The notes under the pieces were generated by a model, which worked only from the letters and a program-made list of their open reading frames with translations, was not told where the DNA came from and made no database searches. A stretch of 32,000 bases of DNA from an uncultured Alphaproteobacteria bacterium. Its GTDB lineage: Bacteria; Pseudomonadota; Alphaproteobacteria; Rs-D84. Positions within the stretch are counted from its first letter, which is position 1. The number at the start of each line of letters is the position of its first letter. Positions 4,675 to 15,532 of this stretch are shown here, piece after piece. Both the position numbers and the translations under genes were made by a program. The stretch spans positions 240,001 to 272,000 of the forward strand of contig OZ007020.1 in assembly GCA_963931495.1 (NCBI GenBank), written 5' to 3'.

Positions 4675-4704
4675 GCCTGTGCCACGGCACAGGCGTTTAT
4701 TATT
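4675..4704. terminator. bidirectional rho-independent terminator between tsaE and the ftsA-rpe fusion
   Basis: Stem gcctgtgcc (4675-4683) pairs with ggcacaggc (4686-4694) across a short loop. It is T-rich on the plus side (gtttattatt) and A-rich upstream, which gives T's on the minus strand. Confidence 0.7.
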
Positions 4705-6475
4705 GATTTTTTCGCAACAGGCTTTGTACCGCCAATGGAAAATCTGGACTGTGCGATAAATAAGAACCACTGACCAATAAATCTGCACCAGCCGCCCAGC
4801 ATTGTTGTGCCGTTTTTGGATTTATGCCACCGTCAACAGATATTATATATTTCAAATTATGTTTTTTGCGTGTTGCGGCCAATATTTTTATTTTGTTTAA
4901 GCAAGTGGAATCAAATTCTTGACCGGCCGCACCAGGGGTTACCGCCATTATCATTACTTCATCTATATCCCGTAACACAGGTCGTAATATTGCCGGTGAC
5001 GATTCAGGGTTTAATGCAATGCCGACGCGTCGCGATGCGGCGTGCACTGTTTTTATCGCATCGCGCAGGCCGGATGTGTTTGTTGATAATATTACGGTGT
5101 CGGCACCAGCGGCAACCGCATCTGATGCCCATACGTTTGGGCTTTCTGTCATAAGGTGTACGTGCAAGTGCGCGTTTGTGCGACTGCGTATCTGTTTTAA
5201 TTCGGCGATGCTGCCCGCGATTCTGTCAACATAAAATCCGTCCATTATGTCAACGTGTATCATTGATATACCGCCGGCGTTAAATAATGAATATGTTTCG
5301 GGACGTGTCATATCAAAACACAGTGTACTGGGCATTATCGGAATAAAACGTGTACGCTTTTTACGACGTGGGCGAAACACCGATACGGTGCGCGCAATAA
5401 TGCCGTGTATACGATTGCGGCGCGCAATATATGCATCGCGATGCTTTTGCTCTTTATCCCATATGTATGTTGACAGTGCACGAATGTTCGCATCAGAACG
5501 AATGTTTTGTACCGGGATATTAAATATATTTTCAATGAATTCATCAATACTGGTTATTTCAGAACCACCCCCAGATATAAAAATTTGCTTTATGGCATAT
5601 TTCTGTAAAACGTCAGTTGCGATGTCTTTTATTCGCTGGCATATTTCCAGCATGTACGGCATAATCACATCGTTTACGTCGGCGCGCGAAAATTCGTATT
5701 CTGTGTCCGCCGGGGTGAAACGATCCATTTCTTTGGGTATCAAGTCAGCAACATTACGCTTTATCCGTTCTGCATCATCAAAACTGATATTCAATTTTTC
5801 TGAAATTTCATTTGTTATTGTTGTGCCACCAATGTTTATCTTGGTATACAGTACCGGACCACGGTCAATCCATATTGATACAGACGTATACTGGGCGCCA
5901 AAATCAATAAACATACACGCCATTTTTTGTTGGCGAAAAACAATGTTTTGCAAATACATTGAATCATAAAATCCAATCGGTTGAATGTGTGCATGACGCA
6001 GGTCTGATAAAATATGATTCATCGTTTCGTGCGGATAAAAAATGGCACCGAATACAGATATCAGTTGTCTGTCTGTATGACCAATCGGGGTGAACATGTC
6101 ACGCGCCGTTGGGGTGTCGTATCGCATTGGAATTACATGCATGGGATAGTAATCGTCTGGGGCCGAAATTTGCGAAATTTGATTGCGAATGTCAGTCGTA
6201 CTGATTTTGTGTTCGCCACGCCATACAGTGTTTTTTGCGGTTACAGATAATTTTATATTGCCAAAATTTCCGGTAATATATGCATCGTCAAAATGTGTGC
6301 CAATTTGACGTTCCAATTCATCCGTCACAGAATTTAATGCAAACACCGTATCGTAATTATCAACAGAATATACCGCCGATTTCGCAATGCGTCCATTGCG
6401 TACACGGTGGGCAATACCGCGTATACCGCTGGTACCAATATCCAAGCATAAAAAAGACGAATCCAATAAATTCAT
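4700..6475 (-). CDS. FtsA-like actin-fold domain fused to a ribulose-phosphate 3-epimerase (Rpe) domain
   Basis: Single 591-aa ORF. The N-terminal ~345 aa carry FtsA-like motifs: LDIGTSGIRG, HVIPMRY, FIDFGAQYTSVSIW, INIGGTTITNEI..FDDAERIKR and IFISGGGSEI. A basic linker RPRRKKRTR follows. The C-terminal ~220 aa carry Rpe motifs: IMPSTLCFDM, HVDIMDGFYV, HVHLM, MAVTPGAAGQEF, SVDGG and AGADLLVSGS. Confidence 0.8.
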   Translation of the reverse strand: MNLLDSSFLCLDIGTSGIRGIAHRVRNGRIAKSAVYSVDNYDTVFALNSVTDELERQIGTHFDDAYITGNFGNIKLSVTAKNTVWRGEHKISTTDIRNQISQISAPDDYYPMHVIPMRYDTPTARDMFTPIGHTDRQLISVFGAIFYPHETMNHILSDLRHAHIQPIGFYDSMYLQNIVFRQQKMACMFIDFGAQYTSVSIWIDRGPVLYTKINIGGTTITNEISEKLNISFDDAERIKRNVADLIPKEMDRFTPADTEYEFSRADVNDVIMPYMLEICQRIKDIATDVLQKYAIKQIFISGGGSEITSIDEFIENIFNIPVQNIRSDANIRALSTYIWDKEQKHRDAYIARRNRIHGIIARTVSVFRPRRKKRTRFIPIMPSTLCFDMTRPETYSLFNAGGISMIHVDIMDGFYVDRIAGSIAELKQIRSRTNAHLHVHLMTESPNVWASDAVAAGADTVILSTNTSGLRDAIKTVHAASRRVGIALNPESSPAILRPVLRDIDEVMIMAVTPGAAGQEFDSTCLNKIKILAATRKKHNLKYIISVDGGINPKTAQQCWAAGADLLVSGSYLSHSPDFPLAVQSLLRKNQ

Positions 6476-6484
6476 TATCGTTGT

Positions 6485-7165
6485 TTATTTTATTAAAATT
6501 CGTGCATCGTCACGCATATCAATAAAATTCAGTTTCTTGGATAAAATGCCGTGGTTTTTATTTATTACCCCCAAAGATGCAATTGCGGATGCGGCGTCGT
6601 GTTCCGGCAACATTATTGTTATTCCATCATTCGTAACCATATTCCAGCGACGATTTTCAATCCATTCCATATAGTTTATGTTATTTGCCATATTTTGTGC
6701 GGATTCTGTTATCCCAGATATATCATTTGGCAATGTGCCACGAAATGTAACCAGTTCGTTTGTGCGGGTTTCAGATGGCTTGTTTATAATTGTACCATCG
6801 GATGACAGGGGGTAATAGTATGTGCCGTCCGTCCATTGGGCAATTGCGCGATAAAAATCAACCTTTACCGACAAATTGCCATCAGGTCGGCGATGCACCG
6901 CGGATTGACGAACCCCAGGTACAGATGCCACGCGTGAATTTATATTTGCCAAATTTGCGCTGTATGCGCGTGTCCCAGGGGCAACCGCAACCGCCGCCGC
7001 AATCGCATCCAGGTTTTTGTTTGCCGAATCTGTTGTTATTGATATTGTTCGGATGTATGACAGTGCACTGCGCCCCGTACATATCCAGATTACGCGGGTT
7101 GCAAAATATATGGCTAAAACAATAGCGATAATAAAATACAGCCAAAACCATATATTTCTTTTCAT
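6485..7165 (-). CDS. ftsQ: cell division protein FtsQ-like (bitopic, POTRA-type)
   Basis: 226 aa with an N-terminal TM (WFWLYFIIAIVLAIYFATRVI). Size is as expected and it sits 9 nt upstream of the ftsA-like ORF, the canonical ftsQ-ftsA order. Sequence similarity itself is weak. Confidence 0.6.
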   Translation of the reverse strand: MKRNIWFWLYFIIAIVLAIYFATRVIWICTGRSALSYIRTISITTDSANKNLDAIAAAVAVAPGTRAYSANLANINSRVASVPGVRQSAVHRRPDGNLSVKVDFYRAIAQWTDGTYYYPLSSDGTIINKPSETRTNELVTFRGTLPNDISGITESAQNMANNINYMEWIENRRWNMVTNDGITIMLPEHDAASAIASLGVINKNHGILSKKLNFIDMRDDARILIK

Positions 7166-7219: not shown

Positions 7220-7600
7220 TTAACTGGCACGTAATAAATATCCGCGACCAAACATGCAACGGCGGTACGCCCCAACAGACTTTGACGTTGTATTACGTGG
7301 CACAGACAATAATGCACGTTGGCCCACGTCGCGATATTCGTTTGATTGGAATGTTACCCATAACCCGTCCCAGTCGGGCATAATACTGCTCTGGTTCGGG
7401 GAAAGCAGTTTTGAAATTCGTGAACGTGGCATATATGATGGCCGGTCAATGCCCAGGCACGCCTTGTGATCACGGACAAACTGTTCCATGGTTACAGATT
7501 CATTTTCCCAATTCAGTATTGTTGCATCGTCCAAACTGCCCCGATTTACGGATGCGCATGCAGTCAGTGCCAGCAGTAATACGATGAATTTTATTCTCAT
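7220..7600 (-). CDS. small lipoprotein, unknown function
   Basis: 126 aa with a signal peptide and lipobox LLLALTAC. Confidence 0.6.
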   Translation of the reverse strand: MRIKFIVLLLALTACASVNRGSLDDATILNWENESVTMEQFVRDHKACLGIDRPSYMPRSRISKLLSPNQSSIMPDWDGLWVTFQSNEYRDVGQRALLSVPRNTTSKSVGAYRRCMFGRGYLLRAS

Positions 7601-7677
7601 GTTTTGTATTATAATTTAATTGCCTTGTGGGGGCAATAGTTTTTATAATATGATATAATGGAATATAGGATGGGGAT

Positions 7678-8004
7678 ATGGCAATAACCGTTCAGAATTT
7701 TATAAAACTGGCAAATCTGTATAACCAGATGACAATGGTTATGTCGGCAATCTGTGTGCAAAAGGGCGGAATTGCAATTGAAAACTATGTCGGGCGCTTT
7801 TTTATGGCTGATGTTTTAGAATATATTTCTGAATACGGTCGCAGATTGTTGGACGATAAAAAAATGACTGTGCCCGCAGATGTTGCAAATGTTATACAAA
7901 AATTTCAATCGCAATATGAAATGGTGAAAGATTTAACAACCCCAACCCAAAAACCGTTGTATGAAATGACACTGGAAGAATTTGAACGGGTTATGAATAT
8001 TTGA
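7678..8004 (+). CDS. hypothetical protein, no signal peptide; first gene of the Lol-linked cluster
   Basis: 108-aa ORF with SD aggatgggg upstream of the ATG. No motif recognised. Confidence 0.5.
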   Translation: MAITVQNFIKLANLYNQMTMVMSAICVQKGGIAIENYVGRFFMADVLEYISEYGRRLLDDKKMTVPADVANVIQKFQSQYEMVKDLTTPTQKPLYEMTLEEFERVMNI

Positions 8005-8024
8005 ATTAATGGCAAGGTGACAAT

Positions 8025-9365
8025 ATGAATGCAGTAAAACGTACGCTTTGTGGAATATTTGCAGCAGGGATGTTGGTGCTGGGGGGCGCCTGTACGCGAC
8101 AATCACAGAACCAGGTGCCGCAATATGATACCATCAATGTTGTTGAGAATTTTGTGATTGATGAAAATTCTGTGCCGATTTTTCCAAAAAAGGCCGCATT
8201 GACAACCGATACGGCCCAGCGATTTTCGTTGGATTTGCCCAAAAGATGTACTGTGAATTGGGATAACCAGACAATTGTTTCGGTCGTTCCCGAAGAACCC
8301 ATAGAAATGGTGCGTTTGGGGTTGGGGGATCCGTTGCCTGATTTGTTGGTGTCTGATTATGAATTTCGTGAATTAACGGTCAAAGAAGCCTTGGATAAAT
8401 TACTGGTCGGGACAGACATTTCTGTCATAGAAGATGAAGATTTAACAGAAACAATTTCGGGTTCTGTGTCGTCTGGGAATTTGACTGATACGGTTGAACT
8501 GATGGCCAAAATGGGGCGGGTGTATTATTCGTATGATGCGGTTAACGCAGAAATTCACTTAAATCATCGGGCGAAATGGATGATAAAAATGCCGCGTGAT
8601 GAAAATATAATTATGGCACTGTTGGATGCAATGCACGGGGCGGATATGCGGAATTTGTTGGTTGATTGGCAAGACAAGACAATGGTATTTGAAGGTAATT
8701 ATCAAACAGAACGCGAAGTGGCCAAGATCATTTCAGATATTGCGTCAAAGAAATATATGTTGGCGTGGGATATTGATGTATATCGTGTCTATCCACGTAC
8801 AGATAATCCGATTATATGGATGAATTTATTGCCGGCGTTCGGGGATAATAACATAAAAATGTCTATACCAGGCGTGGTTGGACGTGCACTGGTGGTCAGT
8901 CCGGAAATAAATACAAAAACACTGCAAGAATTTTTATCGCAACAGGCAAATGTTGTTCTGATATCCCAGGGACAGTTTGTTATTCCAAATGGGTGGCAAT
9001 CGCGATTTGATATTGGGCAATGCAGCAAAGAAGAACGTTTGGAAACAGATTTGATAATTGGGGCCACGGGTGTGTATGGCGATTTTGGGGGCAAGGACAA
9101 GATTGATGCAAAAATTGTTTTGCGTACCAGTAACGGTGAATTAACATCATTTAATATTCCGTCTGATGTTGGCGATAACTATGTGATTATTGGTATTCCA
9201 ACACATTCGTTTGTTACAACGCCGGAAACGTTAATCAGCCCATTCGCAGAACTGGTGGTGTTTATGTCGCCACGCATCATTTCTATTGTTGATGCAGATA
9301 CGGCGCCAGATGGTGGGGCGCAGCCATTGGTTGGTGATGCGTTACGGGATTTTTTAAGTAAATAA
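8025..9365 (+). CDS. lipoprotein of unknown function with faint secretin-like N-domain and C-terminal signatures
   Basis: 446 aa with SD aaggtg, and signal peptide plus Cys (AAGMLVLGGAC). ELTVKEALDKLLVGTDISVI and TDTVELMAKMGRVYYSYD resemble STN/secretin N-domains. ANVVLISQGQFVIPNG...DIGQ, DNYVIIGIP and the terminal ELVVFMSPRII resemble secretin C-domain motifs. The family call is unverified. Confidence 0.7.
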   Translation: MNAVKRTLCGIFAAGMLVLGGACTRQSQNQVPQYDTINVVENFVIDENSVPIFPKKAALTTDTAQRFSLDLPKRCTVNWDNQTIVSVVPEEPIEMVRLGLGDPLPDLLVSDYEFRELTVKEALDKLLVGTDISVIEDEDLTETISGSVSSGNLTDTVELMAKMGRVYYSYDAVNAEIHLNHRAKWMIKMPRDENIIMALLDAMHGADMRNLLVDWQDKTMVFEGNYQTEREVAKIISDIASKKYMLAWDIDVYRVYPRTDNPIIWMNLLPAFGDNNIKMSIPGVVGRALVVSPEINTKTLQEFLSQQANVVLISQGQFVIPNGWQSRFDIGQCSKEERLETDLIIGATGVYGDFGGKDKIDAKIVLRTSNGELTSFNIPSDVGDNYVIIGIPTHSFVTTPETLISPFAELVVFMSPRIISIVDADTAPDGGAQPLVGDALRDFLSK

Positions 9366-9380
9366 CAGGAATTTGGTAAT

Positions 9381-10634
9381 ATGTTTTCAAAACTGGAAAG
9401 AAAAGTTGCATTCCGATATCTGGGCGCAAAAAAGCGCGGTTTTGGTTCCGTGATTTCGTGGGTGTCGTTAATCGGTATTATGTTGGGGGTGGGGACCCTG
9501 ATTGTTGTTATGTCGGTTATGGGCGGGTTTCATGACACGTTGCTGTCGCGTATCGTCGGAATGAATGGGCATGTCGTCGTTTATCACCAAGATGGCGCAA
9601 TTGCTGATTATGATTTCTTGATTGATAAAATGAAACAAAACAAGGTTGTTGCCGCCAATGCCACTGGGGTTGTCCCAATCGTAGAGGGCCAGGTGATGGC
9701 CACGGCCGGTGGATATAATACAGGTGCAATAATTCGCGGAATTCGTATGTCTGATTTGGCGGCCAAGACAACCACGGGCACAAAAATTTATGGCAAACCA
9801 CTGGATAAAATTCGTGATGGCGAATTGGTTGGTGGTGCGTCTTTGACCCGGGCGTTGCGTGTTGGTATGGGGGATATGATTTCGCTGGTTTCTGCAAATG
9901 GGGCAACGCCAACACCGTTTGGTTCAATGCCACGGATTATGGCGTATCCGGTTATGTCATCGTTCTTTATGGGAATGTATGAATATGATTCTGGGTACAT
10001 ATTTATGCCATTGGAAACGGCGCAAAAGTATCTGAATATTCAAGATTCTGTGACGCATATTGATTTATTCTTGCGTGATCCCGAAGATACAACAGATGTA
10101 CGTGATGCGTTGGCAAATATGTTGCCAACCGGGTTTGTTGTGCGCGATTGGCGTGAATTGAATCGCGGATTTGTCGGTGCGTTACAGGTGGAATCAAATG
10201 TAATGTTTTTGATATTGTTGCTGATTGTGATTGTGGCGGCATTCAATATTGTTTCCAGTCTGGTTATGCTGGTCAAAGATAAATCCAAAGATATTGCGGT
10301 GTTGCGGACATTCGGTGTATCGCGTCGTTCTATGATGAAAATTTTTGTTTTGTCTGGGACCAGTATCGGGATTTTGGGCGCGTTGTTTGGAACTGTGCTG
10401 GGGGTTGTGATTGCGATTTATATTGAACCAATACGTCAATTCGTTCAATGGGCCACAGGACGTGATTTGTTCCCGGCAGAATTATATTATTTATCAGAAT
10501 TACCGTCAAAATTGGTGCCAGGGGAAGTAATTGGAATTGCGCTGATTGCGGTGCTGTTGGCATTTTTGGCAACGCTGTATCCGGCGTGGAAAGCGGCCAG
10601 CACAGATCCGGTTGACGTATTAAGAAATGAATAA
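9381..10634 (+). CDS. lolC: lipoprotein-releasing ABC transporter permease, LolC/LolE family
   Basis: 417 aa. The N-terminus VAFRYLGAKKRGFGSVISWVSLIGIMLGVGTLIVVMSVMGGF matches the LolC/E pattern. It has a large periplasmic loop and a C-terminal FtsX-type 3-TM bundle. Confidence 0.9.
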   Translation: MFSKLERKVAFRYLGAKKRGFGSVISWVSLIGIMLGVGTLIVVMSVMGGFHDTLLSRIVGMNGHVVVYHQDGAIADYDFLIDKMKQNKVVAANATGVVPIVEGQVMATAGGYNTGAIIRGIRMSDLAAKTTTGTKIYGKPLDKIRDGELVGGASLTRALRVGMGDMISLVSANGATPTPFGSMPRIMAYPVMSSFFMGMYEYDSGYIFMPLETAQKYLNIQDSVTHIDLFLRDPEDTTDVRDALANMLPTGFVVRDWRELNRGFVGALQVESNVMFLILLLIVIVAAFNIVSSLVMLVKDKSKDIAVLRTFGVSRRSMMKIFVLSGTSIGILGALFGTVLGVVIAIYIEPIRQFVQWATGRDLFPAELYYLSELPSKLVPGEVIGIALIAVLLAFLATLYPAWKAASTDPVDVLRNE

Positions 10635-10646
10635 AGGAATCGCGTA

Positions 10647-11357
10647 ATGGCAAATATACTGAATTCTTTGTCTAAAATTTCAAAGGGTGATATTGTGCTG
10701 TCGGTGCGCGATATCAAAAAGACATTTATGGAAGGGGGGCAACCATTACATATTTTACGTGGTGGTGGATTTGATTTGCATCGTGGCGAAATAATTGCGC
10801 TGGTTGGACCGTCGGGCAGTGGTAAGTCTACGTTATTACAATGTGTTGGATTGCTGGATCGGCCAACATCGGGCAGTATTTTGCTGGACGGTGTGCCTGT
10901 TCAAAAAATGGATGATGAAATGCGCACGATGATGCGCCGGCGTAAAATTGGTTTTGTGTATCAGCGTCATAATTTATTGTCTGATTTTACTGCGTTGGAA
11001 AATGTTGTGTTGCCAATGTTGGCAAATGGGGTGGATGAACACAGTGCAAATGCGCGCGCAATGAAATTATTACGCGCGGCCAGTGTTGCGCATCGGGCAT
11101 CACATCTGCCGGGCGAAATGTCGGGTGGCGAACAACAGCGTACGGCCGTGGCACGTGCATTGGCAAACAGCCCAGAAATATTGTTGGCAGATGAACCAAC
11201 CGGCAGTTTGGATCCCACACATGCACAATCTGTGTTTGATTTGTTGTTGGATTTAGTGCGTAAAAATAAAATGGCAATGTTGTTTGTTACACATGATATG
11301 AATCTGGCATCACGGGCGGACAGAAAAATTACTATTCACGACGGCGTCGTTGAATGA
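10647..11357 (+). CDS. lolD: lipoprotein-releasing ABC transporter ATP-binding protein LolD
   Basis: Walker A GPSGSGKST, LolD-like LSDFTALENV, signature MSGGEQQRTAVARAL and Walker B ILLADEPTG. Lies 12 nt after lolC/E. Confidence 0.92.
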   Translation: MANILNSLSKISKGDIVLSVRDIKKTFMEGGQPLHILRGGGFDLHRGEIIALVGPSGSGKSTLLQCVGLLDRPTSGSILLDGVPVQKMDDEMRTMMRRRKIGFVYQRHNLLSDFTALENVVLPMLANGVDEHSANARAMKLLRAASVAHRASHLPGEMSGGEQQRTAVARALANSPEILLADEPTGSLDPTHAQSVFDLLLDLVRKNKMAMLFVTHDMNLASRADRKITIHDGVVE

Positions 11358-11388
11358 TATAATATAAATAAAACAGGGGAAGCGAGAG

Positions 11389-12078
11389 ATGAAAAAAGCA
11401 GCACCGAAATCAAAACAAAAAACAGCACAGGTTTGTGACTGTTACAGCACTGGTCATAAAATTTGGGGCGCGGTCGCATTGGCCGGATTGTTTTCTTGTG
11501 GATTAATATTGGGGTTAACATATCGTCCAGAACCCGTCCAAGAGGTACGTCTGGATGCGCAACAGTGTGATGCAATTGCAAATGAAATTATCAAGATTAC
11601 AACTGATGGGGCAACCACAGAAAATGTTGATGTGTTAAATGAATTGAATGCGGCGTACTCTGATGGTTGCGCCGGGCGCTTGGTTATAATTGACCGCGTG
11701 GCAAGTCAAAATCTGATGCCGGAAATAATTTCAACTTGTTCACGTATTGAACAATTGTTGACATCACGTCTGCATCCTGAATCTGATACAGATTATTTGG
11801 CACATTTAAGTAATGCGGATACATACAGTACGTTGGCGGAACGTGGATGTGCGGAAAACGCGGATATGTATAAAACAATGGCACTGCGTGAATTGGAAAT
11901 CGCAACGGCGTTAAAGCCAGAAGAAAATATGAATGAATCTGATACAGAAATTGTGATTGATACGTTCAAAAAGTTGGATATGCAACGCGAAGCACAACAA
12001 TTTTTAGATAAAATTCAACAATTAACCAATCCAGCAATTGATTTTATCTTGCAGATGGAACAGGTAATAAATGGATAA
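11389..12078 (+). CDS. membrane-anchored Cys-module protein, paralogue 1 (unknown function)
   Basis: 229 aa with SD ggggaag and an N-terminal TM (IWGAVALAGLFSCGLILGLTY). Two Cys-bracketed modules, and a C-terminal tail shared with 12830-13630. Confidence 0.75.
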   Translation: MKKAAPKSKQKTAQVCDCYSTGHKIWGAVALAGLFSCGLILGLTYRPEPVQEVRLDAQQCDAIANEIIKITTDGATTENVDVLNELNAAYSDGCAGRLVIIDRVASQNLMPEIISTCSRIEQLLTSRLHPESDTDYLAHLSNADTYSTLAERGCAENADMYKTMALRELEIATALKPEENMNESDTEIVIDTFKKLDMQREAQQFLDKIQQLTNPAIDFILQMEQVING

Positions 12079-12081
12079 ATT

Positions 12082-12804
12082 ATGAAAAAATTTACCGCAA
12101 TATTTACAGCGTGTTTGATTGGAATGCCGGCGTTTGGGGCTGATTCTGGGGTCGCGGCGCGTATGGATTGTACAGATATCCAGGCGCGCATTAGTGAATT
12201 ATCGGCAATTGAAAATCCAGATGATGCAACAACAAATGAATTAACCCAGTTACAGGCATCGTATCGCAGTAATTGTGCGCCATCGGCGGCGGGGCGCCGT
12301 ACATCGGGGCGGGCGGCGGCGCTGTCTTATACCGGTCGGTCTGCATCTAATACAACGGGTGGAACGTCGGGGACGGACAGCACAACCCAGTCGGCGTTGA
12401 CAGTGGATTATGCGCTGAATCAGTTTTTAATGGAATTACAGGGTGTATGTCGGAATTTTTCTGCAAATATCGCAACGTTAACGCGTGGTGGGGCAACAAC
12501 CGAAGATTTGCAGCCTTTGATTGATCAATATCATATAAATTGTTTGGGCGAACAGGTTGCAAGTACAACTGATGATGCGGGCGATACGTCTGGGGACGCG
12601 GATGATACGAATGTGGTGGCGGTTGACCCGGCGGTGGCCGCAGAAAATGTTGCCGCCGGTCTGTGTCCTGATGGCAGCAAGCCAAATAAGTTTGGCTGTT
12701 GCGCCGGTGAAACCTTCAAGGATATTGGTAACCTGGAATTTGCATGCTGTCCCGAAGATGGGAATGAATGCTATCCGCCGATAACCATAGAATATGATAT
12801 TTAG
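12082..12804 (+). CDS. secreted Cys-module protein, paralogue 2, with a Cys-rich C-terminus (unknown function)
   Basis: 240 aa, 3 nt after paralogue 1. Has a signal peptide (FTACLIGMPAFGADSG), two Cys-bracketed ATTE/N modules, a low-complexity S/T/G/R linker, and the terminal motif CPDGSKPNKFGCCAGE...FACCPEDGNECYPP. Confidence 0.75.
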   Translation: MKKFTAIFTACLIGMPAFGADSGVAARMDCTDIQARISELSAIENPDDATTNELTQLQASYRSNCAPSAAGRRTSGRAAALSYTGRSASNTTGGTSGTDSTTQSALTVDYALNQFLMELQGVCRNFSANIATLTRGGATTEDLQPLIDQYHINCLGEQVASTTDDAGDTSGDADDTNVVAVDPAVAAENVAAGLCPDGSKPNKFGCCAGETFKDIGNLEFACCPEDGNECYPPITIEYDI

Positions 12805-12829
12805 TTTTTATAAAAAAAGGAGGGTGTGA

Positions 12830-13630
12830 ATGAGCACAAGAAAGTCTGGTAAAAATGATATCAGAAATACACGTCGGGGTACGTGGATATGGTGGGTCGT
12901 CGCCATTATAATATTTGGTGGTTTGGCCGTATGGGGTATTTATGCCGCAGATAAATCGGGTAAAACAGATATGACAGGTGGTTTCCAAGAACCCCAGCCC
13001 CAGGTTGTTGCCACAGAAAATAGTAATGAAATGCGTCCAGCCTGTGCAGTCATAGAAGATATGCTGGTGTTTGGTATCGTCGGTGATGATGATACGGATT
13101 GGCAGAAACAGGCCGACAGTGCACAAATATATTCCGTGTTGGCAGAACGCGGATGTCCAGAAAATGCCCAGTTCTTTAAGGATATGGCACAACGTAAACA
13201 GACAATTGCCGATGGATTGCGCGCAATTATGGACCCAAATAACAGTATTATGACATCTGTGGAATATCTGTATTCTGATGACAGAATTTGCCAAACAATT
13301 GAAAAACGCGTAATTCAAAATATTAATACCAAGGCGTATACATATGACGAATTCTTGGATAATGCGAATACTTATTCGGTTCTGTACCAATTTGGATGCC
13401 ATCCAAATAAACGTGCGTATTCGCGTGCGGCAATTCGCGAACTGGGGGTTGCAATGGCATTGGTGCCACCAGAACATATGACCAAAGAACAAATTGTTAC
13501 AATTATGGAAGTGTATAAACGCATGAAAAATGCAGATGGTGCGCATATGGTTCTGCAACGCTTAAAGGCGCGCGGATATGATATGGACTTCTTGTTAAGT
13601 ATGGAAGAAATCATACACGGCATGGCGTAA
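12830..13630 (+). CDS. membrane-anchored Cys-module protein, paralogue 3 (unknown function)
   Basis: 266 aa with a strong SD aaggaggg and an N-terminal TM (WIWWVVAIIIFGGLAVWGIYAA). Two YS.L...GC.(E/P)N modules, and a C-terminal tail alignable to paralogue 1. Confidence 0.8.
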   Translation: MSTRKSGKNDIRNTRRGTWIWWVVAIIIFGGLAVWGIYAADKSGKTDMTGGFQEPQPQVVATENSNEMRPACAVIEDMLVFGIVGDDDTDWQKQADSAQIYSVLAERGCPENAQFFKDMAQRKQTIADGLRAIMDPNNSIMTSVEYLYSDDRICQTIEKRVIQNINTKAYTYDEFLDNANTYSVLYQFGCHPNKRAYSRAAIRELGVAMALVPPEHMTKEQIVTIMEVYKRMKNADGAHMVLQRLKARGYDMDFLLSMEEIIHGMA

Positions 13631-13715: not shown

Positions 13716-13790
13716 GCGGGCATAGTACAAAGGCTAGTATGCAAGCCTTCCAAGCTTGAAATGCGGGTTCGATTCCCGCTGCCCGCACCA
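13716..13790 (+). tRNA. tRNA-Gly (anticodon UCC)
   Basis: Hand-folded cloverleaf of 75 nt. Acceptor GCGGGCA/TGCCCGC, anticodon arm CAAGC-CTTCCAA-GCTTG, T arm GCGGG-TTCGATT-CCCGC, encoded CCA. Confidence 0.9.
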
Positions 13791-13905: not shown

Positions 13906-13992
13906 GGGCGTGCGCCGGAGTTGGAGAGCCGGGGCAGACTGTAAATCTGTTGGCTTAAGCCTGAGGTGGTTCGAATCCACCCACTCCCACCA
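13906..13992 (+). tRNA. tRNA-Tyr (anticodon GUA), class II with a long variable arm
   Basis: 87 nt. Acceptor GGGCGTG/CACTCCC (6 of 7 pairs, C4-U69 mismatch), D arm CCGG-AGTTGGAGAG-CCGG, anticodon arm GCAGA-CTGTAAA-TCTGT. Has a 14-nt variable arm, T arm GGTGG-TTCGAAT-CCACC and encoded CCA. Position 8 is C rather than the usual U. Confidence 0.8.
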
Positions 13993-14094
13993 AAATAAAA
14001 ACACCCGCCGAATGGCGGGTGTTTATATTTTGTGACGGAGTGGTGAGATGAGAACCACTGGTTCGACAATGAGTAGATTTGACCGGCAACGCGC
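13965..14094 (+). repeat. repeat copy A: tRNA-Tyr T-arm/3' end, terminator and downstream segment (x+y)
   Basis: 13965-14065 (x) recurs at 15435-15532. 14046-14094 (tail of x plus y) recurs at 17095-17143. Confidence 0.9.
14001..14031. terminator. rho-independent terminator after tRNA-Tyr, usable on both strands
   Basis: Stem acacccgcc / ggcgggtgt with loop gaat, followed by ttatatttt. The minus-strand reading is followed by ttttatttt. Confidence 0.75.
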
Positions 14095-14134
14095 GGTCAA
14101 AACGTCAGGAATGCCCCACAGGGCACTTTTTATA

Positions 14135-14794
14135 TTAACTTTTTTTATTTTTAGATAAAAAAGCAATTATTAACACCAAACTTATACAGAATAAAAAAGA
14201 AATGCCATTAATAACATCATTTGTTCTATCTTTTTCCATAACTGTATAAAATTTTTTATCATCGCTAAAAGGGCATTCTTTTGCTCTTTTTTCAACTGAT
14301 TTACGAACATTTGAATCCCATCTAATTTTAAATTTTTCAAATGTTGAAGCAGTATCATATACTTCTTTTCCACTAATCAATCCTTCACGACAATTTGTGT
14401 TTTTATATGAATCTGCAAAACCTTCTTGAATAATACTATTATTTAGTTCTTTTTTGCATTCTTGTATAACTTCATTTCTATTGTTCTTTTCTATATCTGT
14501 TGAATACATATCTCTTTCTTTATCGGACATATTATAATATTTATCCCAGTCCATTTTATCGGCAATTTTTCCAGTATAACAATCACATACTTTTTCTATC
14601 ATATCTGTTTTCTTTTTATCATCAATTTCAACAGGGATATTTTTTATCATTATGTTTTCACAATGCATAAGAGCAACTGTTCTAAACGCTAATTCTACAG
14701 AAGCAAGTTCAACATCTTTTTTTATAGGTTCTGATTGTGCTTGGGCAAAAAATACACAACTTATAATAATAAAAAATGATATTATTTTTTTCAT
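14135..14794 (-). CDS. islet-encoded exported protein with a C-terminal membrane anchor, Lys/Asp/Cys-rich (unknown function)
   Basis: 219 aa with SD aagga. Has a signal peptide (FFIIISCVFFAQAQS) and a C-terminal TM (ISFLFCISLVLIIAFL). Confidence 0.65.
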   Translation of the reverse strand: MKKIISFFIIISCVFFAQAQSEPIKKDVELASVELAFRTVALMHCENIMIKNIPVEIDDKKKTDMIEKVCDCYTGKIADKMDWDKYYNMSDKERDMYSTDIEKNNRNEVIQECKKELNNSIIQEGFADSYKNTNCREGLISGKEVYDTASTFEKFKIRWDSNVRKSVEKRAKECPFSDDKKFYTVMEKDRTNDVINGISFLFCISLVLIIAFLSKNKKS

Positions 14795-14811
14795 ATTATA
14801 ATCCTTATATA

Positions 14812-15237
14812 TTATTGAACATTTATTTCTGGTTTTTCTTTATCTGGATTATCTGTAAAATCTTTTACACAATATATAAAAGCAATATCTATTAACTTTT
14901 CTCTTGTTTCAGCAATATTAAATACGTTTACAATATGTTTTTTGATTGCATTATAAGTTTTGGGTTCTTTTAAAACATTACCATTGTATAGGTTTATTGT
15001 TGCACATTCACATAATTGATTAACATAAATAACCTTTCCTAATGTGGTTTCTTCTTTTGGTGTATATTTTTTTACACATAAATCTCTTATTTTATCTTCA
15101 TTATCAAAAACATTGTGCACATATTCATTAATATATTTATTTTTATAGTAATTATTAATACATAAATATCCAACAAAAGATATACCCAATCCAAGCAATA
15201 CAACAGATGATATATAAATAAATTTCTTATTTTTCAT
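14812..15237 (-). CDS. islet-encoded small membrane-anchored protein (unknown function)
   Basis: 141 aa with an N-terminal TM (FIYISSVVLLGLGISFVGYLCI). Lies 17 nt upstream of the 14135-14794 ORF on the same strand. Confidence 0.6.
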   Translation of the reverse strand: MKNKKFIYISSVVLLGLGISFVGYLCINNYYKNKYINEYVHNVFDNEDKIRDLCVKKYTPKEETTLGKVIYVNQLCECATINLYNGNVLKEPKTYNAIKKHIVNVFNIAETREKLIDIAFIYCVKDFTDNPDKEKPEINVQ

Positions 15238-15434
15238 TTTGTATTCTTTTTTAATTATTTGAATTCATACCCATTATAATTTAAATATACAAAATGTCAT
15301 TATTAATTTTTTATGTGCTTTTTATTAAAAACACGTTAAAATTATAAAAGTGCTAAGCAAACTGTCTGGCAATTCAATGTTTTTATAGTCAAAAGTGTCA
15401 AGCAAAGAGCAATTTTTGGCTAAAAACCGGCATT

Positions 15435-15532
15435 GGTGGTAATCCACCCACTCCCACCAAAATAAAAATACCCGCCGAATGGCGGGTGTTTATATTTTGT
15501 GACGGAGTGGTGAGATGAGAACCACTGGTTCG
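15435..15532 (+). repeat. repeat copy B: partial tRNA-Tyr 3' half plus terminator (x only)
   Basis: Aligned by eye to 13965-14065. It differs by a 3-nt deletion (tcg of the T-loop) and one substitution (c14002 / t15469). Homology stops after ggttcg. Confidence 0.9.

Follow-up and report, generated by a model that had tools for sequence, protein, structure and literature searches.

Does a lipoprotein-release transporter that sits among genes for envelope proteins mark those genes as parts of its machinery? The question is raised by a string of seven plus-strand open reading frames (ORFs) at positions 7678-13630 of a 32-kb window, the whole stretch of DNA analyzed here, from Candidatus Enterousia, a gut alphaproteobacterium of the order Rs-D84. 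The third and fourth genes encode an ATP-binding cassette (ABC) transporter of the Lol type, and a preliminary description had taken the other five, all uncharacterized, as candidates for one accessory module of lipoprotein sorting or envelope assembly. Our preferred reading, to which we assign a probability of roughly 55%, is that the string combines three evolutionary layers as a mosaic and does not form one dedicated machine or lipoprotein-sorting module. One layer would be lolF-lolD, a housekeeping lipoprotein-release transporter with a single LolF-type permease; another would be ORF1 and ORF2, as members of families F3 and F1 of a widespread, uncharacterized envelope cluster; and the last would be ORF5 to ORF7, fast-diversifying envelope proteins of which ORF5 and ORF7 would be anchored in the inner membrane and ORF6 exported. 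The seven genes are as follows.

7678-8004, plus strand: ORF1, 108 amino acids (aa), predicted stand-alone F3-type domain
8025-9365, plus strand: ORF2, 446 aa, secretin-superfamily lipoprotein
9381-10634, plus strand: lolF, 417 aa, LolC/E-type permease
10647-11357, plus strand: lolD, 236 aa, ATPase subunit
11389-12078, plus strand: ORF5, 229 aa, transmembrane-anchored, all-helical, paralogue of ORF7
12082-12804, plus strand: ORF6, 240 aa, signal peptide and Cys-rich C-terminal module
12830-13630, plus strand: ORF7, 266 aa, transmembrane-anchored, two ORF5-type helical modules

The 417-aa product of lolF passed the equivalog cutoff of the LolC/E model TIGR02212 (410.7 bits against 362.45) and contained the Pfam domains MacB_PCD and FtsX. 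Its best sequence match in the PDB was LolF (9w37_A; 9.8e-64, full length), with E. coli LolC (6e-48) and LolE (1e-46) ranking behind. There is a single permease gene, 12 nucleotides (nt) 5′ of lolD, and the top NCBIfam match of LolD was the LolD model TIGR02211 (250 bits, short of the equivalog cutoff of 307.75), accompanied by Pfam ABC_tran at 9.3e-33. Both proteins had been called recognizable at the outset, and these searches agree. The LolDF arrangement occurs in bacteria without separate LolC and LolE (PMC9963962). By these matches, lolF-lolD looks like a canonical single-permease (LolF-type) lipoprotein-release ABC transporter and is probably the housekeeping one of the organism. It is also very probably the sole copy in the genome, since Rs-D84 genomes are smaller than 1 Mb (PMC12306168) and a second lolFD copy is for that reason unlikely.

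ORF2 and the secretins

Secretins are the outer-membrane portals of type II and type III secretion, type IV pili, competence, and filamentous phage. Direct searches did not point to them: ORF1, ORF2, ORF5, ORF6, and ORF7 gave nothing significant in Pfam, NCBIfam, PHROGs, or PADLOC, and when ORF1, ORF2, ORF7, and a profile of the ORF2 family were compared with PDB sequences, there was likewise no significant match. A defence island at the string was rejected on the strength of zero PADLOC matches. The statement that the five proteins are uncharacterized thus holds for direct family matches but not for ORF2, which is a truncated lipoprotein of the secretin family.

An exhaustive phmmer search against 1.84 billion representative sequences gathered an ORF2 family of only 136 clusters at 50% identity. 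The weakest matches were proteins of 570-900 aa carrying the Pfam Secretin and STN domains (one with TcpQ as well), and these aligned to ORF2 residues ~80-335; distant ORF2 relatives scored best on the NCBIfam models of MshL and PilN type IV pilus secretins. When the ORF2 family was aligned with these secretins by hhalign, the probability was 99.9% and the E value 1.6e-36 over 337 columns, with the alignment extending from the N-terminal domains to the final strand, ELV..PR.IR.V. Three deletions, one of them before the final strand, leave the secretin region of ORF2 ~50-60 residues (roughly 30%) shorter.

Monomer models of ORF2 and ORF5 were compared with the PDB by Foldseek. The AlphaFold2 (AF2) model of ORF2, with a predicted local distance difference test score (pLDDT) of 79.6 and a predicted template modeling score (pTM) of 0.70, has a low-confidence tether (~residues 24-65) after Cys23, then α/β N-domains and a β-rich C-terminal domain. 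Read from the secondary structure of the model, ORF2 would consist of an N-terminal STN/N0-like domain and N-domains of the ring-building type, followed by a shortened, secretin-like C-terminal β domain. Its top 17 PDB matches were all secretins (probability 0.94-1.00), led by the lipoprotein secretin BfpB of the BfpBG complex (1.2e-9) and followed by PilQ, InvG, GspD, and phage pIV; N-domain crystal structures of XcpQ and GspD were also matched. Global TM-scores against secretins were ≤0.26, as expected for a monomer model set against extended protomers. ORF2 is a secretin-derived lipoprotein with a truncated pore domain.

ORF2 is presumably lipidated and located at the outer membrane. Cys23 was invariant in 38 homologues, and of 47 family members at greater distance at least 32 had lipobox-like motifs, whatever their neighborhood; because lipoboxes are common across the family, we rejected the idea that lipidation is tied to lolFD adjacency. 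A prophage or inovirus origin of ORF2 was unsupported, as PHROGs returned nothing significant, the GC content of the gene is typical of the window, and its divergence follows that of LolF across lineages. Pfam families of type II secretion (T2SS), type III secretion (T3SS), type IV pili (T4P), competence, and phage assembly were found nowhere within ~10 kb in the Enterousia or related loci examined. Flagella are reported to be lacking from Rs-D84 genomes, and type IV pili are not among the features reported for them (PMC12306168).

Neighborhoods of ORF2 homologues

Neighborhoods of ~10 kb on either side of the ORF2 homologue were compared in 80 Enterousia species loci, 8 closer lineages (L087-L090 and L146-L149), and 55 distant loci (L091-L145). 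A single scan of genome contigs returned solely Enterousia-type loci (76-87% identity), and the distant contexts were obtained from encoding contigs and a metagenome scan. The order ORF0 (the divergent lipoprotein gene upstream of ORF1), ORF1, ORF2, lolF, and lolD was constant in the 80 Enterousia loci, with lolD lying beyond the end of one short contig; median identities were 82, 72, 80, 87, and 86%, respectively.

ORF2 and lolFD were adjacent in 80/80 Enterousia species, in 5 of the 8 closer lineages, and in 0 of the ~40 distant loci with a called homologue. ORF2 homologues of the closer lineages show 37-42% identity. The order double-helix-turn-helix (HTH) gene, F4, F3, ORF2-like gene, lolF, and lolD was seen in L087, L088, L089, L147, and L149, of which L087 has no F4 and L147 lies on a contig too short for the HTH gene. 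The ORF2-like gene overlaps lolF by 8 nt in L087 and by 4 nt in L089 and is 4-38 nt away from it in L088, L147, and L149. With the order ORF1-ORF2-lolF-lolD present in five further lineages, the link between ORF2 and lolFD exceeds one genome. L090, L146, and L148 have the same upstream genes, and lolFD is absent beside their ORF2 homologue. The radA-cvpA-isoamylase genes, distal to lolFD in L088, are kept in L090 and L148, as if lolFD had either departed from a stable neighborhood or been added to one. Judged by these gene orders, the ORF2-lolFD link is a trait of one sub-clade that was lost at least once.

The 55 distant loci are from gut and rumen metagenomes, and an ORF2-like gene was called in ~40 of them. 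They show a recurring order, F0-F5-F4-F3-F1-F2, with no lolFD nearby (e.g., L111:2361-11732 and L115:829-11816). The families of this F-cluster are as follows.

F0: one to three tandem polytopic membrane proteins of 450-1360 aa, some bearing an M23 peptidase at the N terminus
F5: double-HTH_3 protein of ~330 aa
F4 and F3: two families without transmembrane segments, F3 including the ORF1-type domain
F1: ORF2-like truncated liposecretin
F2: bitopic protein with a Pro-rich cytoplasmic N-terminal part and a conserved, presumably periplasmic C-terminal domain of ~90 aa with two Cys residues

No secretion or pilus ATPase was found near the F-cluster in L091-L145. The cluster is uncharacterized and is conserved across many gut and rumen metagenome contigs. 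Its recurrence in the distant loci, with no lolFD close by, identifies the F-cluster genes as the primary associates of ORF2. Neither the window nor any of the 80 Enterousia loci matched the hidden Markov models (HMMs) of F0, F2, F4, or F5. We rejected the possibilities that F2 had moved nearby or had been replaced by ORF5, as there was no F2 HMM match and BLAST gave no link between ORF5-ORF7 and the neighboring families.

ORF1 connects the string to this cluster. It has no signal peptide or transmembrane segment by our hydropathy script and no significant family or PDB match, and it matches the C-terminal domain of the protein encoded directly 5′ of the ORF2 homologue in L087-L090 (BLASTP, 1e-4 to 1e-7). 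The F3 HMM, which was built including ORF1 itself, matches ORF1 at 9.4e-20 and also matches all 80 Enterousia loci. ORF1 thus appears to be a stand-alone cytoplasmic copy of the F3-family domain, which is encoded directly 5′ of every ORF2 homologue examined, and this position in every lineage examined makes ORF1-ORF2 a conserved pair.

An additional gene is wedged between lolF and lolD in 14/80 Enterousia species (L008, L009, L019, L027, L036, L037, L058, L061, L064, L072, L078, L081, L083, and L085). It encodes 204-276 aa without an obvious signal peptide, found no match in Pfam or PADLOC, and in all 14 species is unrelated to families F2-F5. In L009, where coordinates were checked, its ends overlap or abut lolF and lolD (L009:12591-13349), and it appears to belong to the Lol transcription unit.

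ORF5-ORF7 and the layout of the string

Export, anchor, and transmembrane assignments were made with a hydropathy and lipobox script written for this analysis. It placed N-terminal hydrophobic export or anchor segments in ORF2, ORF5, ORF6, and ORF7 and none in ORF1, which bears out the earlier count of at least four envelope-directed proteins beside a 108-aa protein that has no signal peptide. ORF5 has a short cytoplasmic tail, one transmembrane helix (~residues 24-46), and the Cys pairs 60/94 and 117/154; ORF7 has a cytoplasmic tail and one transmembrane helix (~residues 16-41). The helical domains of both are presumably periplasmic. BLASTP of ORF5 against ORF7 gave 4e-17 and 1e-13 for two ORF7 segments, so the two proteins are paralogues with the module doubled in ORF7. 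The AF2 model of ORF5 (pLDDT, 82.5) is all-helical and consists of stacked helical hairpins. Its Foldseek search of the PDB yielded zero matches at an E value of ≤0.001; what it returned were weak tetratricopeptide repeat (TPR)/14-3-3-like matches with E values of 0.027 or worse, Sgt1, Sec72, and IpgC being among the TPR-like ones. The ORF5 family has 103 homologues found, and those named are all labeled Alphaproteobacteria bacterium. Many members, although not all, carry in the tail before the transmembrane helix (window 11389-11470) a Cys motif that reads C.C or CCST and has H/Q-K-I/V-W after it.

ORF6 had been described as a third paralogue, and this we rejected: BLASTP against ORF5 and ORF7 was not significant, and hhalign against the ORF5 family gave a probability of 8%. 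Besides a signal peptide, ORF6 possesses two Cys-bracketed segments and, at its C terminus, a Cys-rich module; it appears to represent a family distinct from that of ORF5/ORF7. The C-terminal module (window 12640-12804) reads roughly C.DG..PD..GCC.GE.Y.D.G...F.CCP and occurs as 40 stand-alone ORFs in other Enterousia species, mostly of 75-111 aa with an N-terminal transmembrane segment (e.g., L009:15482-15730); from its sequence we take it to be a mobile, small disulfide-rich module.

Median identities across Enterousia loci were 40% for ORF5, 57% for ORF6, and 32% for ORF7. At least one ORF5/7-type gene and at least one ORF6-type gene lie 3′ of lolD in 52/52 Enterousia loci with full flanks, with one to three copies of the former and one or two of the latter per locus. 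No ORF5-ORF7-like genes followed lolD in the non-Enterousia lineages compared. ORF5 to ORF7 therefore appear to be fast evolving and variable in copy number, and they were found only in Enterousia-type sequences. The comparison of lolCD neighborhoods that had been proposed as a check consequently divides the five genes: ORF1-ORF2-lolF-lolD recurs in 80 Enterousia species and five other lineages, whereas ORF5-ORF7 were found only in Enterousia-type sequences, and the five proteins are not one accessory module.

The coordinates of the seven ORFs and the intervals between them (20, 15, 12, 31, 3, and 25 nt) were exactly those reported before, and no terminator-like site, that is, no hairpin with a T-run, lies within any of the six gaps. 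A purine-rich Shine-Dalgarno-like stretch precedes most of the ORFs and is weak before ORF6. Other features of the string and its flanks are as follows.

7601-7677, no strand: intergenic region separating ORF1 from the divergent minus-strand gene for a 126-aa lipoprotein, with a sigma-70-like consensus match
13716-13790, plus strand: tRNA-Gly(TCC)
13906-13992, plus strand: tRNA-Tyr(GTA)
13999-14024, plus strand: terminator-like hairpin with T-run (11 pairs, 7 GC) after tRNA-Tyr

The hairpin at 13999-14024 is the first and only strong terminator-like one, and the transcription unit likely ends there, past both tRNAs. Upstream of ORF1, a plus-strand sigma-70-like site at 7620-7649 is a consensus match only. 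Promoter-like matches numbered 20 in the window, against 20.0 expected in shuffled sequence; at such a frequency a single operon for the seven ORFs is plausible but unproven. Rs-D84 genomes, which are below 1 Mb, miss most biosynthetic pathways, and coding fractions in Rs-D84 and two other reduced-genome lineages are 81-94% (PMC12306168). In a small, densely coding genome of this type, the tight same-strand packing of seven ORFs is unremarkable in itself.

Several features beside the string were recorded. The gene divergent from ORF1 (ORF0; window 7220-7600, minus strand) encodes a 126-aa lipoprotein with the lipobox LTAC and without a family match; it is kept in 80/80 Enterousia loci (median identity, 82%) and was not found beside the cluster in L087-L090. 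Farther upstream, a 591-aa minus-strand ORF (4700-6475) fuses FtsA to a ribulose-phosphate 3-epimerase domain and adjoins ftsQ (6485-7165); the fusion product was called in 6/6 strain contigs. Downstream, the 3′ end of tRNA-Tyr and the terminator hairpin form a 99-nt direct repeat (13967-14065 and 15434-15532; 96% identical), which encloses an islet of 1.47 kb and ~28% GC (14066-15433); on its minus strand lie two uncharacterized ORFs (219 and 141 aa), and an integrase is missing. Past tRNA-Tyr, other strains of this species hold different cargo, namely Fic, a restriction-modification pair of the NgoFVII type, and a His_Phos gene.

Weighing the readings against known systems

Liposecretins are believed to arrive at the outer membrane by way of Lol, with no need of a separate pilotin. 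If the string is a mosaic, ORF2 would be synthesized as a lipoprotein; LolF-LolD would extract it from the inner membrane, and it would be conveyed to the outer membrane as proposed for self-piloting liposecretins, there to form or nucleate a ring. Co-transcription in the Enterousia clade would couple this demanding Lol cargo to its transporter. Most likely, then, ORF2 is a Lol cargo co-transcribed with the transporter and not a LolB substitute or a part of the Lol machine. The data bear directly on gene identities, homology, fold, synteny patterns, and relative divergence; lipidation, residence in the outer membrane, oligomerization, co-transcription, and whatever ORF1 and ORF5-ORF7 do are inferred from them.

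Several observations weigh against this reading. ORF2 matched zero Pfam families at E values up to 1, and because its secretin domain fails the PF00263 (Secretin) threshold, pore or ring formation is unproven. Its lipobox, GGAC, is non-canonical at position -3. Directly 5′ of ORF5, at 11335-11363, stands a sigma-70-like match (TTCACG-17-TATAAT with an upstream TG) that may be an internal promoter; the single operon of the preliminary description, favored by the tight gaps and the lack of terminators, is put in some doubt by it. ORF2-lolF adjacency persists where LolF identity is 44-47%, and this persistence, together with the gene overlaps in L087 and L089, could indicate a partnership closer than that of cargo and transporter. 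Finally, F2 is absent near ORF2 wherever lolFD adjoins, which would fit LolF having replaced F2.

The last of these points would suit ORF2, perhaps with ORF1 and ORF5-ORF7, being a true LolFD accessory: a LolB-replacing acceptor or insertase of the outer membrane, or, in an Aat-like composite, a secretin-like exit channel through which lipoproteins extracted by LolFD would gain the cell surface. Tight adjacency, with its 8-nt and 4-nt overlaps, its occurrence in 80/80 Enterousia species and 5/8 closer lineages at so low a LolF identity, and the loss of F2, the usual downstream bitopic partner, all speak for such a role, as does a precedent for a Lol-like ABC transporter joined to an outer-membrane channel with lipoprotein cargo (PMC7943197). 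We nevertheless consider it distinctly unlikely. An ORF2 homologue stands without adjoining lolFD in all ~40 distant loci, where the wider family sits in a different cluster, and in three of the eight closer lineages; L090 and L148 keep the neighborhood with lolFD gone. F2 is missing from the closer lineages without lolFD too, which means that LolF is no simple substitute for it. The structure searches led from ORF2 to secretins and from ORF5 to weak helical-repeat matches, with no match of LolA/LolB type, and TolC-like, HlyD-like, and Lnt-like genes were not found in the cluster with Pfam and NCBIfam. Nor does an alphaproteobacterium, although no LolB is recognizable in the lineage, have a clear need for a new substitute to insert lipoproteins into the outer membrane: in Caulobacter, LolA was itself demonstrated to have LolB activity, which explains a missing LolB and weakens the argument from its absence (PMC9963962).

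The reverse position, that the genes have no functional relation and are neighbors merely through a dense, rarely rearranged genome of <1 Mb, as separate units or as a meaningless read-through operon, is also unlikely in our view, yet it has a chance that deserves to be taken seriously. The coding fraction of 81-94% (PMC12306168), the promoter-like site ahead of ORF5, the loss of adjacency with retention of ORF2 in L090, L146, and L148, and the toleration of an unrelated gene between lolF and lolD in 14 species are all as it would predict. It is harder to reconcile with the complete lack of terminator-like sites in the gaps, with gaps of 3-31 nt and stop/start overlaps in relatives, and with ORF5/7-type and ORF6-type genes following lolD in 52/52 full-flank loci despite extreme divergence.

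We regard as highly improbable a remnant of a type IVb-pilus-like assembly, in which ORF5 and ORF7 would be pilotins or scaffolds of the PilF/PilW/TadD type for ORF2 and lolFD only a delivery route. BfpB is the top structural match of ORF2, the nearest secretin relatives match MshL/PilN-type models, and the helical-repeat model of ORF5 recalls, weakly, the TPR-like folds of Sgt1, Sec72, and IpgC; the gene order small protein-liposecretin-bitopic protein also resembles bfpG-bfpB-bfpC. However, ORF5 and ORF7 are transmembrane anchored and not lipoproteins, they were found only in Enterousia-type sequences whereas ORF2 homologues are far more widespread, and none of the ORF5 fold matches reached significance (E ≤0.001). 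ORF1 has neither a signal peptide nor a significant PDB sequence match, and genes for pilin, prepilin peptidase, assembly ATPase, and platform proteins were absent within 10 kb in all loci examined.

A bolder extension, which we find very doubtful, would make the ORF2 family the outer-membrane part of an undescribed minimal secretin-derived apparatus of the obligately partner-dependent Rs-D84. This apparatus, which would do without an ATPase of the T2SS, T4P, or T3SS kind, would comprise the polytopic proteins (some with M23), the double-HTH protein, cytoplasmic F4 and F3, the truncated liposecretin, and bitopic F2. Members of the Enterousia clade would have reconnected it to LolFD, a type VII ABC transporter, and the mini-secretin would then pass lipoproteins or other lipid-anchored cargo from LolFD to the cell surface or a partner cell.

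Under the mosaic reading, which we prefer, the Lol transporter looks ordinary, and for lipoprotein trafficking it makes more sense to see its neighbors as cargo and envelope proteins particular to the lineage than to see in them a replacement for LolB. ORF2-family proteins have 390-510 residues; roughly one-third of the pore-forming domain is gone from them, as is any recognizable partner machine. They are nonetheless retained in many lineages, and the genomes to which they could be assigned are <1 Mb and are reported to lack most biosynthesis; retention in reduced genomes despite a truncated pore suggests that the secretin scaffold has been put to a new use. Such organisms are thought to live off other cells. 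It is still strange that genomes below 1 Mb keep the F-cluster, as is the role of a secretin minus a third of its pore domain. Should the ORF2-LolFD link prove physical, a type VII ABC transporter would for the first time have a partner of the secretin type.

Among known systems, Aat of enteroaggregative E. coli works with a channel of the TolC type, an adaptor in the periplasm, and an acyltransferase resembling Lnt. Searches of Pfam and NCBIfam found TolC-like, adaptor, and Lnt-like domains in none of the seven proteins, and the transporter here is probably the housekeeping LolFD and not a dedicated paralogue. Aat is described as a Lol-like ABC transporter with an outer-membrane channel that exports an acylated protein (PMC7943197); it would be a working analogy if ORF2 served LolFD as exit. 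The unclosed β-barrel with a helical lid that is the fold of LolB and LolA differs from both models obtained here, that of ORF2 matching secretins and that of ORF5 being all-helical.

With the LolDF transporters of Acinetobacter and Caulobacter (homodimeric LolF plus LolD), the string shares a single LolC/E-type permease gene directly 5′ of lolD. The periplasmic stretch ATPTPFGSMPR of the permease also aligns with the corresponding stretch of LolF (9w37_A), which we take to be the LolA-recruiting hook region. It differs from them in a LolD below the TIGR02211 cutoff (250 against 307.75 bits), in the non-Lol envelope genes that flank lolF-lolD, and in the uncharacterized gene between lolF and lolD in 14 Enterousia species. 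In comparison with the liposecretins BfpB, TcpC, R64 PilN, and MshL-like proteins, ORF2 has no Pfam Secretin match, a secretin domain ~50-60 residues (~30%) shorter, and, in the loci examined, no neighboring pilus, T2SS, T3SS, or phage assembly genes, and it is kept in genomes of <1 Mb. It shares with them the lipobox Cys at the close of an N-terminal signal peptide, a mark also of HxcQ-like liposecretins, as well as the STN/N0-like domain and N-domains and the ends of the secretin domain. LolDF is already known; the ORF2 family is a shortened, partner-less new variant of the secretins.

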